20,324 nt of DNA, filler included, from Trichodelitschia bisporula (GCA_010356995.1; 11 parts of 11 records of this genome joined end to end with filler, not necessarily neighbours in it); one strand, 5' to 3'. Numbered from the whole stretch's first letter, positions 2,420 to 20,324 are shown. The notes: a model not told the origin generated them from the letters alone. A program made the numbers and translations.

Positions 2420-2433
2420 CCGGGCTCATAACC
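2420..2433 (-). promoter_or_regulatory. Primer binding site GGTTATGAGCCCGG (complementary to initiator tRNA-Met anticodon arm)
   Basis: Directly follows the ...CA end of the 5' LTR on the minus strand. Same type as the Ty5 / Drosophila copia PBS. Confidence 0.88.
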
Positions 2434-5576: not shown

Positions 5577-5761
5577 TTCCCCGCATCCTCAACCCCGCAG
5601 CCCGTACCCCGCGCTATACCCCGCCATGTGACGTCACCGTTTTTTGCAGCGAACACAAAGANNNNNNNNNNNNNNNNNNNNNNNNNNNNNNNNNNNNNNN
5701 NNNNNTTAATTAATTAANNNNNNNNNNNNNNNNNNNNNNNNNNNNNNNNNNNNNNNNNNNN

Positions 5762-7657: not shown

Positions 7658-7757
7658 NNNNNNNNNNNNNNNNNNNNNNNNNNNNNNNNNNNNNNNNNNN
7701 NTTAATTAATTAANNNNNNNNNNNNNNNNNNNNNNNNNNNNNNNNNNNNNNNNNNNN

Positions 7758-7999
7758 CACCCAGCCACTGCGGGATGAAGATCTAGAATCTTCTATGATG
7801 ACAAATTGAGTATCTGGAGTATTCTTCCTGACAAATTGGTCAGATCAATGGAAGATACTGGAAGTCAGACGTTGTGTATATAGTCACTCATTCCCAACCT
7901 CATTCAGAGGTCGAGCTAGTCAGTCAGAGAGATCAATTGATACATTGGTTTTGGCTCGAGCAGTAGCCACTGCTAGTTTCCACGACAAACCCTCAGACA
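7758..7999 (+). mobile_element. 5' LTR (5'-truncated) of a copia element, probably family C
   Basis: Ends ...CAGACA immediately before the PBS; TATATA at 7877-7882. The GACA end pairs with the TGTC start seen at 7634. Confidence 0.75.
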
Positions 8000-8012
8000 G
8001 TTATGAGCCCGG
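8000..8012 (+). promoter_or_regulatory. Primer binding site GTTATGAGCCCGG (half-tRNA iMet type)
   Basis: Same motif as 2420-2433, adjacent to the LTR terminal CA and upstream of gag. Confidence 0.85.
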
Positions 8013-9555: not shown

Positions 9556-9657
9556 NNNNNNNNNNNNNNNNNNNNNNNNNNNNNNNNNNNNNNNNNNNNT
9601 TAATTAATTAANNNNNNNNNNNNNNNNNNNNNNNNNNNNNNNNNNNNNNNNNNNNAA

Positions 9658-11424
9658 GATACCAGGACCGAGCTGCTACGAGAAATTTCTGACTGGGCCG
9701 AGGATCCTCACGGCAAGTTCATATTCTGGCTGAATGGCGTTGCCGGTACTGGAAAGTCCACCATTTCTCGCACGGTTGCTCGGACTTTCGAGGGAAAGGG
9801 ACAGCTTGGGGCAAGTTTCTTCTTCAAGCGAGGCGAAGGCGACCGCGGCAATGTGTCCAAGTTTTTCACCACTATCGCCTCTCAGCTTGCGATCAAGCGG
9901 CCCCAAGTGGCACCATTCATTGCGCGGACCATTGGCAATGACCCCACCATCGTCAACAAGTGTTCACACGAACAGTTTCAAAAACTCATTATTCAGCCGT
10001 TGAAAGAGGCTCCCTTACACTCCTCGCCTCTGATCGTGGTGATTGACGCGTTGGACGAGTGTGAGCAGGAGCAGGACGTGAGGAGTCTCATTCGGATCCT
10101 AGAACAGGGGAAGGACGTGACTTCAGTCCAACTCCGGATATTCGTAACCAGCCGGCCGGAGCTCCCGATTCGTCTTGGGTTCATCAAAATGTCAAAAGAA
10201 ACACATCATGACGTTGTCCTCCACGAAATCCAGCAAGGCACAATCAGGCGTGATCTTGCCTTGTACCTGCATCACGAGCTTGCCATGATACGAAGGGAAC
10301 ACAATCTCCTCGGCCGTACCCAGTTGCCGTCGAACTGGCCAGGAGATGAAACGATCCAAAAGCTGGTTGAGATGGCGATCCCGTTGTTCATCTTCGCTGC
10401 TACGGTGTGTCGTTTCATCGCCGATACAACATGGAATCCCAAGAAGACTCTTGCCGCTGTCCTGGAGCACCAGCATGAGGAATCCAACCTTGAGAAGACA
10501 TATCTCCCGATTTTGCACCAGCAGATTGCCGGTCAAACCAGGAAGAGGACCAAAGATAGGCTTGTGGCAGAGTTTCGTGAGATTGTTGGCACCATCATCA
10601 CTCTTGCTACTCCACTCTCCATTATGTCGATTGCTGAACTCCTTAGAGTTCCAGAAGACGACGTCGAGATCAGATTGGACTCGCTACACTCCGTCCTCAG
10701 TATCCCGGTGGACAAAGAGAAGCCGGTTAGACTCCTGCATCTTTCTTTTCACGACTTCCTTGTGGACACCGAAAAAGTTGCCGGTGAATTTTGGGTGGAT
10801 GAGCACGAAATGCATGGAAAGGTTGCCATCAAATGTCTCGAACTAATGTCCCAACCCGATCGCCTTAAGCAGGATATGTGCATGGTCCAGGCCCCTGGAA
10901 CGCTTCGCGAGGACATCGACAACCAGACGATAGGAATTGCTCTGCCACCCGAAGTCCAGTATGCCTGCCAGTACTGGGTACACCATCTCAAGAAGAGCAA
11001 AAAACCTTTGCCCTACCAAGGCGCAGTGCAAGTCTTCCTGGAGAAGCATTTTTTGCATTGGCTCGAAGCCATGAGCCTCATTGAGAGAACGGCAGAGTCC
11101 GTTGATGCAGTTCGCACACTGCGGTCGCTTTTCTCGGTATGAGAGCCGCAAAATTTTGCTCGCAAGTTCGCTAACACAATAGACCAAGAGCGGCAAAAAT
11201 AGCGACCTCCAGAGTTTTCTTTTGGATGCAGAAAGTTTTCTCCTAAAGAACTGGGGGATCATCGAGCATGCGCCGCTCCAAACTTACATTTCCGCCCTTA
11301 CCTTTGCTCCGGAGAGGAGTGTCATTCGAAGGCAATTTCACACGCAGAAGCCCCGCTGGGTACGCCTGCAACCTAAAGTGCAAGACTGGGATGCGTTTTT
11401 GCAGACGCTCGAGGGCCATTCGGA
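9658..11424 (+). CDS. NACHT-WD40 fungal NLR (HET-E/NWD-like), partial at both ends; exons 9658-11136 and 11183-11424
   Basis: TRTELLREI..W, Walker A IFWLNGVAGTGKST, ASFFFKRG, Walker B IVVIDALDEC, VTSRPE, PLFIFAAT, LHLSFHDFL, YACQYWVHHL, HFLHWLEAMS. 46-nt intron GTATGA...GCTAAC...TAG (11137-11182) keeps the frame. Then APLQTYISALTFAP...LQTLEGHS, the start of the first WD40 repeat. Confidence 0.95.
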
Positions 11425-11524
11425 NNNNNNNNNNNNNNNNNNNNNNNNNNNNNNNNNNNNNNNNNNNNTTAATTAATTAANNNNNNNNNNNNNNNNNNNN
11501 NNNNNNNNNNNNNNNNNNNNNNNN

Positions 11525-11923
11525 GTCACCTGGACGTCGAAACGTCAAGCAACAGTGGCTCTGTCGACAACCGAAGCAGAATACATGGCACTTTGCCAAG
11601 CCGCTCGAGAAGCAGCATGGCTACGACAATTGCTCGCAGGACTCGGATTTCGCAAGAGCAAGGAGCCAGTCACGATTCACGTTGACAACAAAAGCGCCAT
11701 AGCCCTTGGAAAGAATCCAGAATTCCACAAGCGAAGCAAGCACATCGACGTTCAGTACCACTTTGTACAACAGCAGGTACGAGACGGACGAGTGACGACC
11801 CCTTACCTACCAACAGCCGAAATGGTCGCAGATGGATTGACGAAAGCACTGAGTCCAGAGCTTCACCAACGATTAATCAAACACTGCAGACTCAACCCAC
11901 AGGTCATCGAACGAGGGTATTAG
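11525..11923 (+). CDS. Copia family A RNase H C-terminus (5'-partial)
   Basis: VTWTSKRQATVALSTTEAEY...VDNKSAI...SKHIDVQYHF...ADGLTK. Followed by PPT GAGAGGGAG (12045-12053) and LTR A. Confidence 0.94.
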   Translation, partial: VTWTSKRQATVALSTTEAEYMALCQAAREAAWLRQLLAGLGFRKSKEPVTIHVDNKSAIALGKNPEFHKRSKHIDVQYHFVQQQVRDGRVTTPYLPTAEMVADGLTKALSPELHQRLIKHCRLNPQVIERGY

Positions 11924-12053
11924 GCCGATTGCCTTGGAGGAAGGAGGTACAAGAATGTGTTGAGTTTTTATTACTTGTTTGATCTTTGACTACAGTTTGG
12001 CAGCGATCAGGACTATCTCGCGAGGTTCTTGTGCTTGCAAGTCTGAGAGGGAG

Positions 12054-12487
12054 TGTCGGCATACCCGATGTCGTGTTACCCGGAAATGCAGGCTTGGCAC
12101 GGCGAACACCGAAGTGACGAAGATGGACGACGCCGAAGTCCGATGAAGTTCAGGAACATCCTGGAGATGTCGGCATACCCGATGTCGTGTTACCCGGAAA
12201 GGCAGGCTTGGCACGGCGGACACCGAAGGGGCGAAGATGGACGACGCCGGAAGTCCGATGAAGTTCAGGAACATCCTGGAGACCCATCACGGATATATAC
12301 TGTTCATTCTGTAAACTAGAGAAGGCAACAAGCTAGGCAATCAATCTTTTCTCACACAATTCTTTGAGCACTTCCGCCAAAAGGAGAACCATCACGGATA
12401 TATACTGTTCATTCTGTAAACTAGAGAAGGTAACAAGCTGGGCAATCAATCTTTTCTCACACAATTCTTTGAGCACTTCCGCCAACA
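12054..12487 (+). mobile_element. 3' LTR of family A, split in two (12054-12167 and 12388-12487) by a nested solo LTR
   Basis: The two halves sum to 214 bp and reconstitute the LTR seen at 2434-2690 with one repeat unit. TGTCGGC start, GCCAACA end. Confidence 0.93.
12168..12382 (+). mobile_element. Solo LTR of family A (215 bp) with 5-bp TSD GGAGA
   Basis: Complete LTR TGTCGGC...GCCAAAA (terminal CA changed to AA), flanked by GGAGA at 12163-12167 and 12383-12387. Confidence 0.92.
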
Positions 12488-12820
12488 ACGCAATGGGTAA
12501 ACGCTTCTGGCATTCTTTCCCCTCGTTTTTCCCACATGGTTTTTGAGGTTTTAATGAGGCCAGACACTGCCAACCCCTTCTTGTTTTTGTCTCTCTTGGA
12601 GTTTATTCCATCCCGGGACATGGGAGGCAGTGGGAGCTCACTGTTGGTGCACTTCCATCCACCTCGGTTTGAGTGGGAGTGCTGAATTTGTGGCGGCAAC
12701 CTGGGGTGGCTGGAGCGGAGCCAGGAGACAGGGATCGTCTCCTGGCGAGGTATATAGTCAGCTCACTTCCCACTGCTAGTCGATCAAGCAACTCAGTCAA
12801 GTTCACACTTAATTTTAACA
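12488..12820 (+). mobile_element. 3' end of copia family B: 3' UTR, PPT GAGTGGGAG (12671-12679) and short LTR 12680-12820 (141 bp)
   Basis: 12490-12719 matches 14644-14873 (10 mismatches in 230 nt by eye), which follows an RNase H. LTR TGCTGAAT...TTTTAACA with TATATA at 12751. Confidence 0.88.
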
Positions 12821-13278
12821 GAATGCGAGAACCAGCAGGAGTATTATAGGATCAAAGATGAGCTCCTCTGTCTCGGTAAGAATGTGGGTGGTTCTTGTAG
12901 AAGATTATCAGCATGCAAATGCCAAACTGAAGTTATTTACGGTCTGGGATTTCGCTCGTATCCTTTGTGAAAGATAAGGTTGATTTCCAGAACCAGCTTT
13001 TGTCTCATCCGTTCGGAATCACGGACTAAGGAGAGCCTGACATGCTCATAACGAAGAACTTTGGGTAATTCCCCATGACCTTGTTTGGCATACACCGGCT
13101 CTAGCAATGCCGCTGGCCTTGTTGTCGTAGCCATCGAAATCAGTATAACCAAGGTGACTTGGACTCGTAACGTCTCGTTGGTATACTGCAGTCTGTCCCA
13201 TTTCCAAAGGTGGTTGAGAAGGATGGCCATATCGGCAAAGCTTAGGACAGGCTTCGGCTGCCGTTCTCTACTGAGTCC
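12821..13278 (-). pseudogene. DUF3435 tyrosine recombinase (Starship captain-like) fragment, exons 13278-12941 and 12893-12821, interrupted by copia B
   Basis: GLSRERQPKPVLSFADMAILLNHLWKWD...TLRVQVTLVILISMATTTRPAALL...LRYEHVRLSLVRD...LVLEINLIFHKG...RP, then a 47-nt intron (GTAAAT...GCTGAT...AAG), then TTHILTETEELIFDPIILLLVLAF, cut at the LTR. The pattern KP..D...lW..D..RvQ..T..RP.aL..KG..E...L.fdPi..LLalAf fits DUF3435 as I recall it. Confidence 0.82.
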
Positions 13279-13381
13279 ANNNNNNNNNNNNNNNNNNNNN
13301 NNNNNNNNNNNNNNNNNNNNNNNTTAATTAATTAANNNNNNNNNNNNNNNNNNNNNNNNNNNNNNNNNNNNNNNNNNNNAG

Positions 13382-14653
13382 CCGACTGCCCGAGAGCAGC
13401 ACGAACAAAACGGAGTTGCGGAAGTCTTCAACCGCATTCTCCTTGAAAAACTCCGGCCGACGCTCATCCAGTCTGGTTTAGACTGGAAATGGTAGCCAGA
13501 GATTCTTCGCTCCATTGTCGTGATCCGCAACGGGCTCTACAGCCCTCGGATCAACAAAATGCCCTACGAGGCATGGTTTGGCGAGAAGCCGAACATCGGT
13601 TGGATCCGGACGCTTGGGTGTGACTGCTACGTCGCGAAGACGCAGCGCCACAAGCAGAAAATTGGATCCGACATGACTGAGTGGTGCAAGCTCGTTGGCT
13701 TTGACGGATCGAAGAACTACAGACTTTTGAACGCGAATGGCAACCTCATTCGGTCAGCAGATGCTGTCTTCAGAGAATCTCGACCGCATATCCCAGAGCC
13801 GCCACGGAGCCAAGAGCTGAGGGAATCTGCATCACCTCATGCAGGAACCGAGCTGCCTCCTCCAGCGGGAGCAAAGCGATCGGCTCCAGAGCCAAGGGCA
13901 GAGCGACCAAAGCGTCTCAGAGTCTCTGACGCTGCTCAGCCCGCCTCTGCAGGGGGAGAGGATCATCCCCTGCGGGCTGATCTGCATTGGCGTCCCGAGC
14001 AGCGGCCGAAGCACTGCACACCTGTTCAAGTCGACGCGCCCCGGAGCGGCTCGGATGCCGACACCCCAGGAGACGCCTCAACGGACCTTTCAGAGCAGAT
14101 CGACTCGCAATCCGATGGCCATCAGTCAGAAGCCGGAAGCAGCTCCACCTTGTCAAACATCAACTTGCAGTCAACAGACTTGGCAGACGAGGAAACTGCC
14201 GAACCACGCACAGAACCCCGACTCCCGGTGCGTGAGAACAGGGGGCGTCAGCGTGGTGCGGGATACCTCAGAAAATACGCCTTCCTTGTTGCGTTGATTG
14301 GTGCCGCCTCCCACAGTTCCGAGCCGTTCGAGCCACGGGATTTCCAGCAAGCAAAGGCCAATGAGGTCCACTGGCCCAGATGACTGAACGGCATGAAGTC
14401 GGAAGGCAAATCGCTCCAAGGCGCCATCTCGCTGGCAAAGAACCCCCAATTTCACGCCAGATCGAAGCACATCACCATCCAGCACCACTTTGTACGCGAG
14501 AAGCAGGCAGAGGGGGTCATCGACATGCGGTACATCTCGACGAAGGAGCAGATCGCCGACGGACTCACCAAGGCCTTGCCAAAGGATCGCTTTCTGGTTT
14601 TTCAGGAAAGCCTTGGGGCTGGAGTGTCGCTTTGGGCGGGAAAGCAATGGGTA
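13382..14653 (+). pseudogene. Defective copia family B pol: integrase core end, linker, then RNase H C-terminus with RT deleted
   Basis: EQNGVAEVFNR...KMPYEAWFGEKP...LVGFDG. Stops TAG 13493-13495 and TGA 14381-14383 fall at expected Trp positions. EPRDFQQA...GMKSEGKSL is joined directly to QGAISLAKNPQFHARSKHI...ADGLTK. Confidence 0.9.
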
Positions 14654-14824
14654 AACGCTTCTGGCACTCTTTTCCCTCGTTTTTCCCACAGGGTTTTTGA
14701 GGTTTTAATGAGGCCAGACACTGCCAACTCCTTCTTGTTTTTGTCTCCCTTGGAGTTTATTCCATCCCGGGACATGGGAAGCAGTGGGAGCTCACTGTTG
14801 GTGCACTTCCATCCACCTCAGTTT

Positions 14825-14873
14825 GAGTGGGAGTGTTGAATTTGTGGTGGCAACCTGGGGTGGCTGGAGTGGA
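14825..14873 (+). mobile_element. PPT and start of family B 3' LTR (TGTTGAAT at 14834)
   Basis: GAGTGGGAG then TG; matches 12671-12719. Confidence 0.85.
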
Positions 14874-14973
14874 NNNNNNNNNNNNNNNNNNNNNNNNNNN
14901 NNNNNNNNNNNNNNNNNTTAATTAATTAANNNNNNNNNNNNNNNNNNNNNNNNNNNNNNNNNNNNNNNNNNNN

Positions 14974-16447
14974 GTGAATGATCTTCCTGCAGTACTTGCG
15001 ATTGGATTGCAACGACGTGTTTGAGTAGCACGATCGCCTCGCCTATTCGCCCGTCTTCAAGGTATGCCGTCGCAAGTTCTTGCTCCGATCCTAGACGGTC
15101 TGAATGATCTTCCTGTAGCACTTTCCATCGGATTGCAACGACGTGTTTGAGTAGCTCGATCCCCCGGCCAGCTTGCCCGTCGCAGCTGTATGCGCTGGCC
15201 AGGTAATGCTCCGAATCAAGAGTTGCTGCATCATCTTCTCCGGAATTTTCTTTTCTCCATTTGAAAACTTGCTCATACCAGTATATACACTCCCGGCGTC
15301 TCCCATCCCACATAAAGAAGTGCCCAAGCAGCTTGCATAGGGTGTAATGGCTGGCCAAGTCTTCGCCCTGAGCAGATTGAGCAACTTTTAACGCGTGGGG
15401 CAGGTATTCTCGACCCATAGGGAAGTTGTCGTAGCTGTCCTGGGTATCTGGAAATACATCCGCAAGGTGCTCCACCGCCTCTTTCCTCGCCTCCTCTTTC
15501 AACAGGGGATGCTTGTCAAGCCAAATCTTGGTCGCCTTTTGCACGAGTCTGTGCATGTCGTACGTGTTGTCGTCCCGTTTGGTGAAGAAAGCGTATCCAA
15601 GAAGGGTACCAATGGCGCTCACCAAGCGTGCTTTCGTCGGCACTGGAGGCAGGATCGACCTAGGAATCGCCTTTGGCTCGATGTAAGACACGAAGGCAAG
15701 GAGGTTGGCAGCTGTCTGATCTGTCTGGCGGATTTGTTCGAAGGAGACGCTCCATGTGTTTGCAATGGCGTTCGAAGCACTCTGGGGTCGCGTACGGTCG
15801 GTGAACTCGGCGCTCATGAGATCGGCCATGTCTTGGTCGGTATTCCGCAGGAGCTGCAGATATTCGGAAATGGACATCGAGTTTCTCGCAATGTAGGCTG
15901 CTGCTTGTGCAATCGCCAAAGGAATGAACTCCAGTTCGGTCAAGAGCTTGTCTGTAATCGAAGCGTCGTAGAGTAACTTCTCTGACAAGGACTTTCGGAG
16001 AAAATCGAGCTAGTCTTCCTTGTTCATTTGGTTCAGTTGAATGATTTCGCTACATCCCAGCTCCGTTGCGATATGTCGAAAGCGCGTCGTGCAAACCACC
16101 TGGCCGTTCGGACTTTTCGGGAGAAAATGGACAAGATGCATGGACTGATCGGGGGACGGAGAAAATATATTCGCGTTGTCGACGTTATCAACAATCAAAA
16201 GCCAGCGCCCTGCCGTTTCGCTACTTAGATACTCCTTCACCAAATTCTTTACGTCCTTGTCCTTGTTTTGATCGGAAAGGAGAGACAGCTTGCTTGCGAT
16301 ATGGGAGCAGTCTTGGGTAAATGTTGCCTCGCTCACGGCGGAAATCCAAAACACGGAGCACTGGGGATCATTCTCTTTCACCCAGTAAGCGAACTGCAAG
16401 GCGATTTGCGTCTTTCCAGTGCCGCCGAGACCGTGAACTACCAGCAT
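14974..16447 (-). pseudogene. NB-ARC/P-loop + TPR fungal NLR, partial, with in-frame TAG at 16012-16010
   Basis: Walker A HGLGGTGKTQIA, VFWISA, Walker B WLLIVDNVD, VCTTR, LEFIPLAIAQAAAYI, TWSVSFEQI, YDMHRLVQ, YLPHA, then 42-aa TPRs (126-nt period, 14975 vs 15101). The two track ORFs are in one frame separated by a single stop (NKED*LDFLRKSL). Confidence 0.9.
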
Positions 16448-16862
16448 TNNNNNNNNNNNNNNNNNNNNNNNNNNNNNNNNNNNNNNNNNNNNTTAATTAA
16501 TTAANNNNNNNNNNNNNNNNNNNNNNNNNNNNNNNNNNNNNNNNNNNNCCGCGCACGCTATCTTCGCGTTGCCCATATTTAAAGGCCTGGAAGACATCAA
16601 CTGTTCATCAGTTTTTTCTCCAGAAGCCTGACAACCACATCAAGACACTTGAATGTTGGTGTTAGCCATCTCTAATCTGTCCGTGCGAGTCAAAAAGGAC
16701 TCGAAGTCAGATCCCCACTTCTACTTGCCCCTTGCCTCTCTACTCCAATTCCCTCACCGGAGGTAACTCCTCCAAGCCGAACCCTTCTTCCTCCTCCATC
16801 AATTCGCTTCACCTTTCTTCGCGCTTGCCTCACCGCCGCTCCGCATCCTCAACCCTGTCACC

Positions 16863-17803: not shown

Positions 17804-18305
17804 NNNNNNNNNNNNNNNNNNNNNNNNNNNNNNNNNNNNNNNNNNNNTTAATTAATTAANNNNNNNNNNNNNNNNNNNNNNNNNNNNNNNNNNNNNNNNN
17901 NNNAGGCGCTCATTGCGAGGCTGTCAGGGGCGTGCAAAAGTGTGGAAGTCACGATGGGTATGATGCAGGCATGAACAAGTTACTTCCACAAAGATCTATC
18001 TGAAGGGCGAGCCGCCAGACTCTTGAGCAGATCGCGCTGCCGTCTGCCTAAGGCATGGCGGGGTGCGGGAAGGCTGGCGTGACGTGGCAGCAGCCGCGGG
18101 GGAAGATCGTGGGGAGCCAATGAGGTTAAGGCCCGGCATTGGTCTCCCACGACAGAGGCCGACAGATAATGTCAGGGCCCAGCTAGGCTCACGGGTGGAA
18201 TTCAATTGGCATGGCCAAACAAACAATACTTCTATGAAGAATCTATGTAAAGTGGAGGAGGAGCAAACCTAAGTGATGGGTGGTGGTCTAGGCGTCGAGA
18301 CCCTT

Positions 18306-19116: not shown

Positions 19117-20324
19117 NNNNNNNNNNNNNNNNNNNNNNNNNNNNNNNNNNNNNNNNNNNNTTAATTAATTAANNNNNNNNNNNNNNNNNNNNNNNNNNNN
19201 NNNNNNNNNNNNNNNNGCTGTTGCTTGGAAACGGAGCGACGTTTGCACGGGGCACGGTCAGCACGGTGTGAGTGGGAGGGTCGCGAACACGGGGAACCCG
19301 CGCCGGGCATCCTGCTCAGCAGCGCCTTCTTCAATATTGTGACGAATGCCGTCTGTTGGGCCAAACCCGCCCCACTTCTCGGGGCGAAGGGGTCGAGGGA
19401 CCAAGCTTGCCGGAGGCGCGCCGAGGGAAATGTCAGTATGCTCGGAAATGGTTGAACTGGCTCACGGCCGTGACGAAGGTGATTACCTCGGGTGGACCAG
19501 ACCGTCATTAAGGTATGCTCCCGCAAGTGAACGCTACGACGACAGTTTGGCGCGTGCAACCGCCCACGCCTCTGCCTTGGGCGCATGCGTTTCTGCTGCG
19601 CCCGCCTTTCCTGCCGGCGGTCCTGCTGGCGGGGGCCGATATCTCGCAGCAGTGGTGTCTGGCTCACTGCGCTCCGGCGCGCAGAACCCTAGCTGCTAAC
19701 CTGTGCTCCGGAGACCGAGATACGCGGCCCGGCGGGTGTGAAGCTGAGCGGTTGCAATGTCAGCGGGAGGGCCATAGCCGCTGAACGGGACCGGAACTTA
19801 GCAAGCCAGCTGTATCCCGAGTCTGCCATGATAGCGCCGCCCACAGCGCGACGGCCGGTATGAAGCGGCGATGCGATGGATTTGGTTGCGGGTGGCTCGG
19901 GCGGCTCGGCGAGAAGGGGAATGAAGCTCCTCAACCAAGGACCATCGGCTGGGGGAGGGACGACCGCAAGCGGTGCGAGGATACCTCGCGTCGACGATGC
20001 TGCACGAGGGCCACTGGCGACAGGCAATCATCGGCAGCGCACTGATGCCTGATGCCGGCAGGACACGCATTTTGATTGAGATACTTGCCGCAGCTCGAAG
20101 CTGCGTGACTACGCCGCCGTTGATACCGACGGAGACCGAAAGCACACAAGAGGGAAAGCGAGGTGCGAGCACTGCGGATGCTAGAGCGGTGGCCTAGAGT
20201 ACATAGGTGCAGCCAGCCATTGATGGGCCAAAAATCCGAGAGCGTCCGCATGGCTCGAGGCGCTTGTGTGTGCTAGCCAGTGCACGGCGATCGCTTCACG
20301 AAGCTTGCCTGGTACGACAAATTC

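Follow-up and report, generated by a model that had tools for sequence, protein, structure and literature searches.

The stretch of DNA analyzed here, referred to as the window, comprises 20,324 bases from Trichodelitschia bisporula (GCA_010356995.1) in which 11 contigs are chained in order of falling size, from 2,818 down to 1,108 bases. Positions 11525-13279 are exactly one whole small unplaced contig of 1,755 bases, the sixth in the chain (contig 6). Its sequence contains a fragment of a DUF3435 (tyrosine-recombinase family) gene, the 3' end of a Ty1/copia retrotransposon (family B) with its long terminal repeat (LTR), the 3' end of a second copia element (family A), and a further family A LTR that splits the LTR of the first. 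An earlier note on this DNA had described a four-layer stack at this position, and all of the layers and junctions that it placed are present in the contig. Neighboring contigs have no demonstrated linkage, and features that span or compare neighbors carry no positional meaning.

Contig 6 opens inside the C-terminal end of a family A pol frame (11525..11923, + strand), which covers the RNase H end with its ADGLTKAL motif, is open from the contig start to 11920 and terminates at a stop codon at 11921-11923. A Pfam scan of this 132-residue product returned 0 families, and homology was established with BLASTP and phmmer instead. The pol end is 35% identical (44/125, E 6e-24, BLASTP) to the C-terminus of an RVT_2-bearing pol on contig 3, and it has 3053 database relatives, the best of them 72-79% identical and several of these carrying copia gag, integrase and RVT_2 domains; element A has, in these matches, pol homology to copia-type reverse transcriptase/RNase H. 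A 3' untranslated stretch follows (11924..12053, +), read directly and unique within the window, which ends with the polypurine tract GAGAGGGAG (12045-12053, +) directly before the 3' LTR. That LTR starts with TGTCGG at 12054.

The ends of the family A LTR are fixed to the base by an independent copy on contig 1, where a 5' LTR (2690-2434, - strand; TGTCGG...CCAACA) is followed by GGTTATGAGCCCGG and then by a copia gag-pol frame. Over its N-terminal 726 residues, P0085 aligns colinearly with this frame at 45% identity, and the same full-length relative matches the A pol end of contig 6 at 76%. The frame is still open at the contig end, within an SH3-like domain (residues 709-783 of 784), and the integrase C-terminus of A falls outside the window. 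Element A presents LTRs of the TGTCGG...CCAACA type in three copies, a polypurine tract, and a primer-binding-site-like motif after the LTR. The contig 1 LTR contains three tandem copies of a 21-base unit, GGACGACGCCGGAAGTCCGAT (2570-2640, -), and each of the two family A LTRs in contig 6 contains one (12130-12150 and 12240-12262). The post-LTR motif lies at 2420-2433 (-) after the A 5' LTR and recurs with one mismatch at 7999-8012 (+) upstream of a third copia gag, on contig 4; motifs of this type give 2 matches in the window against 0.13 expected. Presumably it resembles the complement of the initiator tRNA-Met anticodon arm, as in classic copia.

The 3' LTR of family A in contig 6 is itself interrupted, as the earlier note had reported. 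Its left part (12054..12167, +, 114 nt) ends with GGAGA and is followed by a complete family A LTR of 215 bp in the same orientation (12168..12382, +; TGTCGG...CCAAAA), by a second GGAGA (12383..12387, +), and by the right part of the outer LTR (12388..12487, +, 100 nt, ending ...CCAACA). The two GGAGA copies flanking the inner LTR (12163-12167 and 12383-12387) match perfectly and form a target-site duplication of 5 bp, a length general for Ty1/copia elements; of the outer element's flanks, the contig shows the 3' one alone, ACGCA. Excising the inner LTR together with one GGAGA yields an outer LTR of 214 bp that aligns to the inner one at 206/214 positions with one 1-base gap. The 8 differences divide into 4 transitions and 4 transversions, and are thus unlike those produced by repeat-induced point mutation. 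End to end against the contig 1 5' LTR, the inner LTR shows 210 matches, 5 mismatches and one 42-nt gap, the gap being two extra units of the 21-nt tandem in contig 1. It starts and finishes at the exact termini set by that copy.

Read data were consulted as k-mer contigs of four runs (X1-X4, hereafter run contigs), with X4 from a different organism; the listing covered 29 of their 1,571 pieces. Of the sampled words, 0.63-0.67 are present in two runs that come from one sample; depth figures are not taken as copy numbers, and partial coverage of the stretch by X3 and X4 carries no conclusion. One run contig joins 12162 straight to 12383, leaving out 220 bases (215 + 5), and is the plain intact LTR form expected from other copies.

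A repeat search and Tandem Repeats Finder both report the split LTR as adjacent direct repeats with periods of 114 and 105, an L1-L1-L2-L2 pattern that fits the prediction for self-insertion of an LTR at one point. The same periods might be put down to two independent tandem duplications (114 and 105 bp) in a single LTR, with no nested element, and the 21-nt unit present three times in contig 1 shows that tandem duplication occurs in family A LTRs. At its second occurrence, however, the first repeat starts on the first base of the LTR, at its first occurrence the second repeat ends on the last base, and GGAGA is duplicated at the junction; each duplication would have needed to hit one particular base of ~215 by chance, which makes this explanation scarcely credible. 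A different history accepts the nesting and moves it back in time, such that the LTR-in-LTR was made once in an ancestral A element, was copied by retrotransposition, and was carried into B by the outer A element. The insertion point precedes the TATA-like motif, in the U3-like upstream portion of the 3' LTR, and this portion of a 3' LTR is copied to both LTRs of daughter elements. The divergence of inner and outer LTRs at 8/214 positions likewise indicates that the event was not very recent. Weighing on the other side, the plain LTR is what is seen elsewhere, in the contig 1 5' LTR and in the run contig that skips the 220 bases, and a 435-bp composite would carry two promoters and two terminators, probably to the detriment of expression. 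We give inheritance from an ancestral composite a slim chance, and prefer an insertion into the LTR of the A copy that is present here. As assembled, the contig has a single LTR flanked by the GGAGA duplication with no internal region; the inner LTR is either a solo LTR, generated by LTR-LTR recombination, or a full element collapsed by a short-read assembler.

The outer family A LTR ends at 12487 and is followed by ACGCAATGGGTAA, whereas a second copy of family B reads AAGCAATGGGTAA at 14642-14654. This second copy is on a separate contig (contig 7, 13380-14873) that is next in the chain, and its closeness in the window is artificial. From 12488 to 12679 (+), contig 6 carries family B copia sequence from downstream of RNase H, which has ACGCA as its first 5-mer, matches contig 7 at 14642-14833, and ends with the polypurine tract GAGTGGGAG (12671-12679, +). 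The 141-bp family B 3' LTR (12680..12820, +; TGCTGAA...TTTAACA) follows, with an imperfect terminal inverted repeat and the TATA-like GGTATATAG. Between 12488-12719 and 14642-14873, 11/232 bases differ, 9 of them by transitions, and the B sequence of contig 7 continues unbroken upstream of 14642 into the B pol tail. The other B copy is thus continuous across the point at which family A ends, in agreement with the earlier note. Contigs of runs X1-X4 that match from 12490 on also carry B pol sequence upstream, which is the empty-site form. The insertion point of A is ~20 codons past the ADGLTKAL motif of B, and ACGCA is presumed to be the 5-mer duplicated upon insertion, with AAGCA in the empty copy.

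Both ends of the B LTR are marked by changes of flank in the run data. At the left end, several run contigs with differing flanks have loose ends just before 12679-12685; at the right end, run contigs diverge past 12820/12821, one of them going on with primer-binding-site-like GTTATGAGCCCGG, as in family A. Element B thereby combines copia-type pol with an LTR that has TG..CA ends and flanks in the runs. At a single position of the B LTR, as many as 49 different run contigs have a variant letter, indicating that family B is multi-copy. The RNase H ends of B (contig 7) and A are 54% identical over 54 residues, and the B integrase end shares 25% identity with P0085, compared with the 76% of the A pol end; judged from these identities, A and B belong to separate copia lineages.

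The contig 7 copy of B encodes a retroviral integrase SH3-like domain (PF25597, E 4.4e-11), and RVT_2 was not found by Pfam in the two contig 7 frames scanned (13496-14383 and 14384-14640). The SH3-like domain is followed by a long low-complexity linker and then by the RNase H tail, with in-frame stops, and this copy appears to be internally deleted and non-autonomous. Beyond 37 bases at the end of contig 7, the window contains no other B LTR. The open 65-codon tail of B was considered as coding sequence and rejected, since 8 amino-acid differences between the translations of the two copies argue against constraint. Run X4 includes a 1,242-base contig in which the B pol end, tail and LTR B run straight into the primer-binding-site-like motif; the arrangement reflects either a tandem B-LTR-B array or a k-mer path that crossed the LTR artefactually.

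The sequence adjoining the B LTR derives from a DUF3435 gene on the minus strand. Its N-terminal region (12941..13279, -) is in a frame open to the contig end, with a stop-free translation from 13278 to 12940, and scores above the Pfam cut-off for the DUF3435 family (PF11917, E 5.4e-11, 42.5 bits vs a cut-off of 25.8), covering only profile positions 3-80 of 418. With phmmer, the whole library yielded 76 relatives at E up to 0.001, among them full-length proteins 600-800 residues long. Next in the direction of translation is a 47-nt frame-changing stretch (12894..12940, -) that holds the TAA at 12937-12939 ending the upstream frame, followed by renewed DUF3435 coding homology (12821..12893, -; ...THILTETEELIFDPIILLLVLAF) that stops at the base adjoining the B LTR. 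The continuation was detected with a custom profile built from 19 relatives of at least 300 residues and run over six-frame pieces of the contig. The main DUF3435 piece scored 110 bits (profile positions 127-236), and a piece in another frame, 12904-12818, continued it colinearly over positions 235-260 with 13.9 bits; the third-ranked among the 50 six-frame pieces listed scored 1.0 bit. P0011 and P0038 give weak colinear tblastn matches for the 12821-12893 region, and Pfam returned no family for the short minus-strand pieces 12844-12936 and 12603-12851. Aligned DUF3435 residues reach 12821, and the proposal that the B LTR (12680-12820) directly adjoins the recombinase is borne out. By this alignment, B lies within DUF3435 coding sequence, ~40% along the profile and upstream of the expected catalytic region, leaving ~135 N-terminal residues in the contig. 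The stretch at 12894-12940 may have arisen by pseudogene damage, or may be a short intron of the form GT...CTGAT...AAG whose acceptor is unusual.

Six relatives of the fragment are annotated as Trichodelitschia bisporula hypothetical proteins of 79-215 residues on six scaffolds. P0002 (79 residues), 99% identical, shares the stop codon; identity is ~91% for P0003, which is frameshifted, and for P0078, and 86% for the partial P0001, P0079 and P0080. Since all six models are short or partial and are spread over six scaffolds, the recombinase gene is itself a multi-copy, decaying repeat, and the DUF3435 family looks uniformly truncated in Trichodelitschia bisporula. The earlier note had called this gene a captain. 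Captains are DUF3435 tyrosine recombinases encoded by the first gene, counted from the 5' end, of giant fungal elements (Starships) with target-site duplications at their borders (Gluck-Thaler et al., 2022, PMC9156397). The DUF3435 assignment stands, the domain scoring above the PF11917 cut-off; the name is overstated for an N-terminal fragment with an in-frame stop or a short intron. On the homology available, "DUF3435 gene fragment, captain-like" is as far as a label can go.

How far the contig itself can be trusted bears on all of the above. Several points weigh against a nest of successive insertions. The contig is a 1.7-kb unplaced piece with repeats at both ends, and it lacks the 5' half of every layer (both A copies, B and the DUF3435 gene), so that a target-site duplication can be read on both sides for the innermost insertion alone, the partners for A in B and B in DUF3435 being unseen. 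Among the 29 of 1,571 run pieces listed, none bridges any junction with at least 31 bases on both sides. At the junction of B with DUF3435, the overlap on the LTR side is 19 bases in an X1 contig (12802-12908) and 7 in an X3 contig (12814-12874, 0 differences). In addition, one base beside the inner duplication and the penultimate base of the inner LTR differ from the reference forms. On the integrity of the contig, the read data neither confirm nor contradict.

A rival explanation is an assembly artefact, either a chimera formed through repeats or a "solo" LTR that is really a collapsed full-length A element. The 1,755 bp of the contig are nearly all repeats and its repeat parts match many different run contigs, while the X4 contig in which B tail and LTR B run into a primer-binding-site-like motif illustrates how a k-mer path that passes through an LTR can link a 3' to a 5' context. 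False joins by shared k-mers, however, fall inside homologous sequence. The joins here (12487/12488, 12820/12821 and 12167/12168) are exactly at LTR termini beside unrelated sequence, and one has a perfect 5-bp duplication, indicating integration rather than k-mer mis-joining. Collapse of a full element would alter only "solo" to "full-length" and leave the nesting as it is. We consider an artefact unlikely. The X1 contig at 12802-12908 also differs from contig 6 at 7 positions, all within 12840-12865, and extends from the DUF3435 side into LTR B; it hints at a second, diverged copy of the B/DUF3435 junction, i.e., at duplication of the gene after the B insertion, although 19 bases are too few for bridging.

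An element that is interrupted must have been in place before its interrupter, and the resulting relative order (DUF3435 first, then B, outer A and the inner A LTR), which is also the order in the earlier note, is well supported. In the proposed series, a family B copia would first have interrupted the N-terminal third of one copy of a multi-copy, decaying DUF3435 gene. A family A copia would then have integrated in the B tail, between RNase H and the polypurine tract; its 5' LTR would follow B pol sequence ending in a ...GGGAAAGCA-like form, with the same 5-mer as at 12488-12492. Finally, another A copy would have integrated in the A 3' LTR, 114 bp from its start and just upstream of the TATA-like motif, and would now be reduced to one LTR, whether by LTR-LTR recombination or by the assembler. 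The locus is very probably an ordinary transposon nest, built by successive integrase-mediated Ty1/copia insertions into already repetitive DNA. The LTR termini, the duplication around the inner LTR, the unbroken form of B and the reach of DUF3435 homology to the B junction are shown directly; we infer that each step took place here, with the inner LTR being solo and relaxed selection in repeat-rich DNA, rather than targeting, accounting for the nest.

Targeting had been suggested from the density and direction of the insertions. The 1.75 kb hold three insertions made in succession, one of them in the LTR of its own family, and all three retroelement insertions do point the same way (+), with DUF3435 on the minus strand. 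These features could mean that A (and B) prefer retroelements or silent chromatin, by Ty5-like tethering, or that the locus is a hotspot. None of this goes beyond expectation. Agreement of two orientations has a chance of 1/4 and is not significant, and a small contig left unplaced is, by selection, likely to be rich in repeats. The window has one further family A flank (2691-2818), which belongs to neither A nor B, and in the runs the remaining A and B LTR copies are flanked by various sequences. Nested insertions in niches rich in transposable elements, such as those of fungal plant pathogens, are described as common in fungal genomes and of little fitness cost (PMC9970103), relaxed selection alone yielding nests. 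A targeted or hotspot origin is thus quite improbable for this locus. In a more far-reaching form of the idea, an integrase-directed preference would take A to retroelement or heterochromatic DNA, including its own LTR, and such nests would have truncated every DUF3435 "captain" copy in the lineage, grounding the Starships; all six annotated relatives in Trichodelitschia bisporula are indeed short fragments, and we regard this version as very doubtful.

An ordinary nest of insertions has many counterparts. LTR retrotransposons form nests in maize intergenic regions, and solo LTRs within LTRs are clustered near yeast tRNA genes. As in known nests of this kind, element lies within element, the innermost LTR termini and duplication give the order, and a gene-like base is destroyed; nothing of substance sets the present case apart, except that only 3' halves are visible in a 1.7-kb contig. 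In Saccharomyces, Ty5 is targeted to silent chromatin via an integrase motif that binds Sir4. Families A and B share with Ty5 membership in the copia superfamily and insertion in presumably silent repeat DNA, a likeness that was only ever a suggestion of the earlier note.

Among fungal elements, those of the GalEa clade of copia have a 5-bp duplication and short TG..CA LTRs of 138-311 bp (Donnart et al., 2017, PMC5445492). The Ty1/copia elements of filamentous ascomycetes described there compare well with families A and B, which have TG..CA LTRs of 141-257 bp, a 5-bp duplication, and ADxxTK at the RNase H end. They differ in the post-LTR sequence: the motif found here is neither the palindromic conserved hairpin of GalEa nor the FunCo1 primer-binding site, as far as these motifs are quoted in that paper. 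A GalEa label for A and B was dropped on account of this mismatch. A and B are undescribed copia families of a known type, and the nest is ordinary rather than a new mechanism.

In common with Starship captains, the interrupted gene exceeds the Pfam DUF3435 threshold and matches full-length DUF3435 proteins of 600-800 residues; it differs in that the contig is without catalytic region, element boundaries and a 5'-terminal position, and that the closest named relatives are short, partial models. Two other contigs of the window, at 9656-11424 (+) and 14974-16448 (-), contain long frames with the P-loop motifs GVAGTGKST and GLGGTGKTQ, respectively, the latter also with repeated TPR-like units that include a 126-base tandem at 14975-15226. 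These frames look like NLR-type genes by appearance and are unlinked to the nest contig. Genes of the NLR type are reported as companions of DUF3435 genes in Starships (PMC9156397).

The contigs of the window are chained by ten 100-base spacers, each made up of N runs around TTAATTAATTAA (2819-2918, 5662-5761, 7658-7757, 9556-9655, 11425-11524, 13280-13379, 14874-14973, 16449-16548, 17804-17903 and 19117-19216). An exact direct repeat of 117 bases is found at the start of contig 2 (2919-3035) and the end of contig 11 (20208-20324), and looks like an unmerged contig overlap.

If A were to favor retroelements far beyond what selection alone produces, it would be a fungal case of targeted copia integration, a direction in which nothing points yet. 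The value of the locus is mostly one of annotation: for two copia families of a Dothideomycete-like genome it sets the LTR boundaries to the base and supplies a target-site duplication and a primer-binding-site-like motif, and it adds one more DUF3435 gene copy killed by a retroelement.

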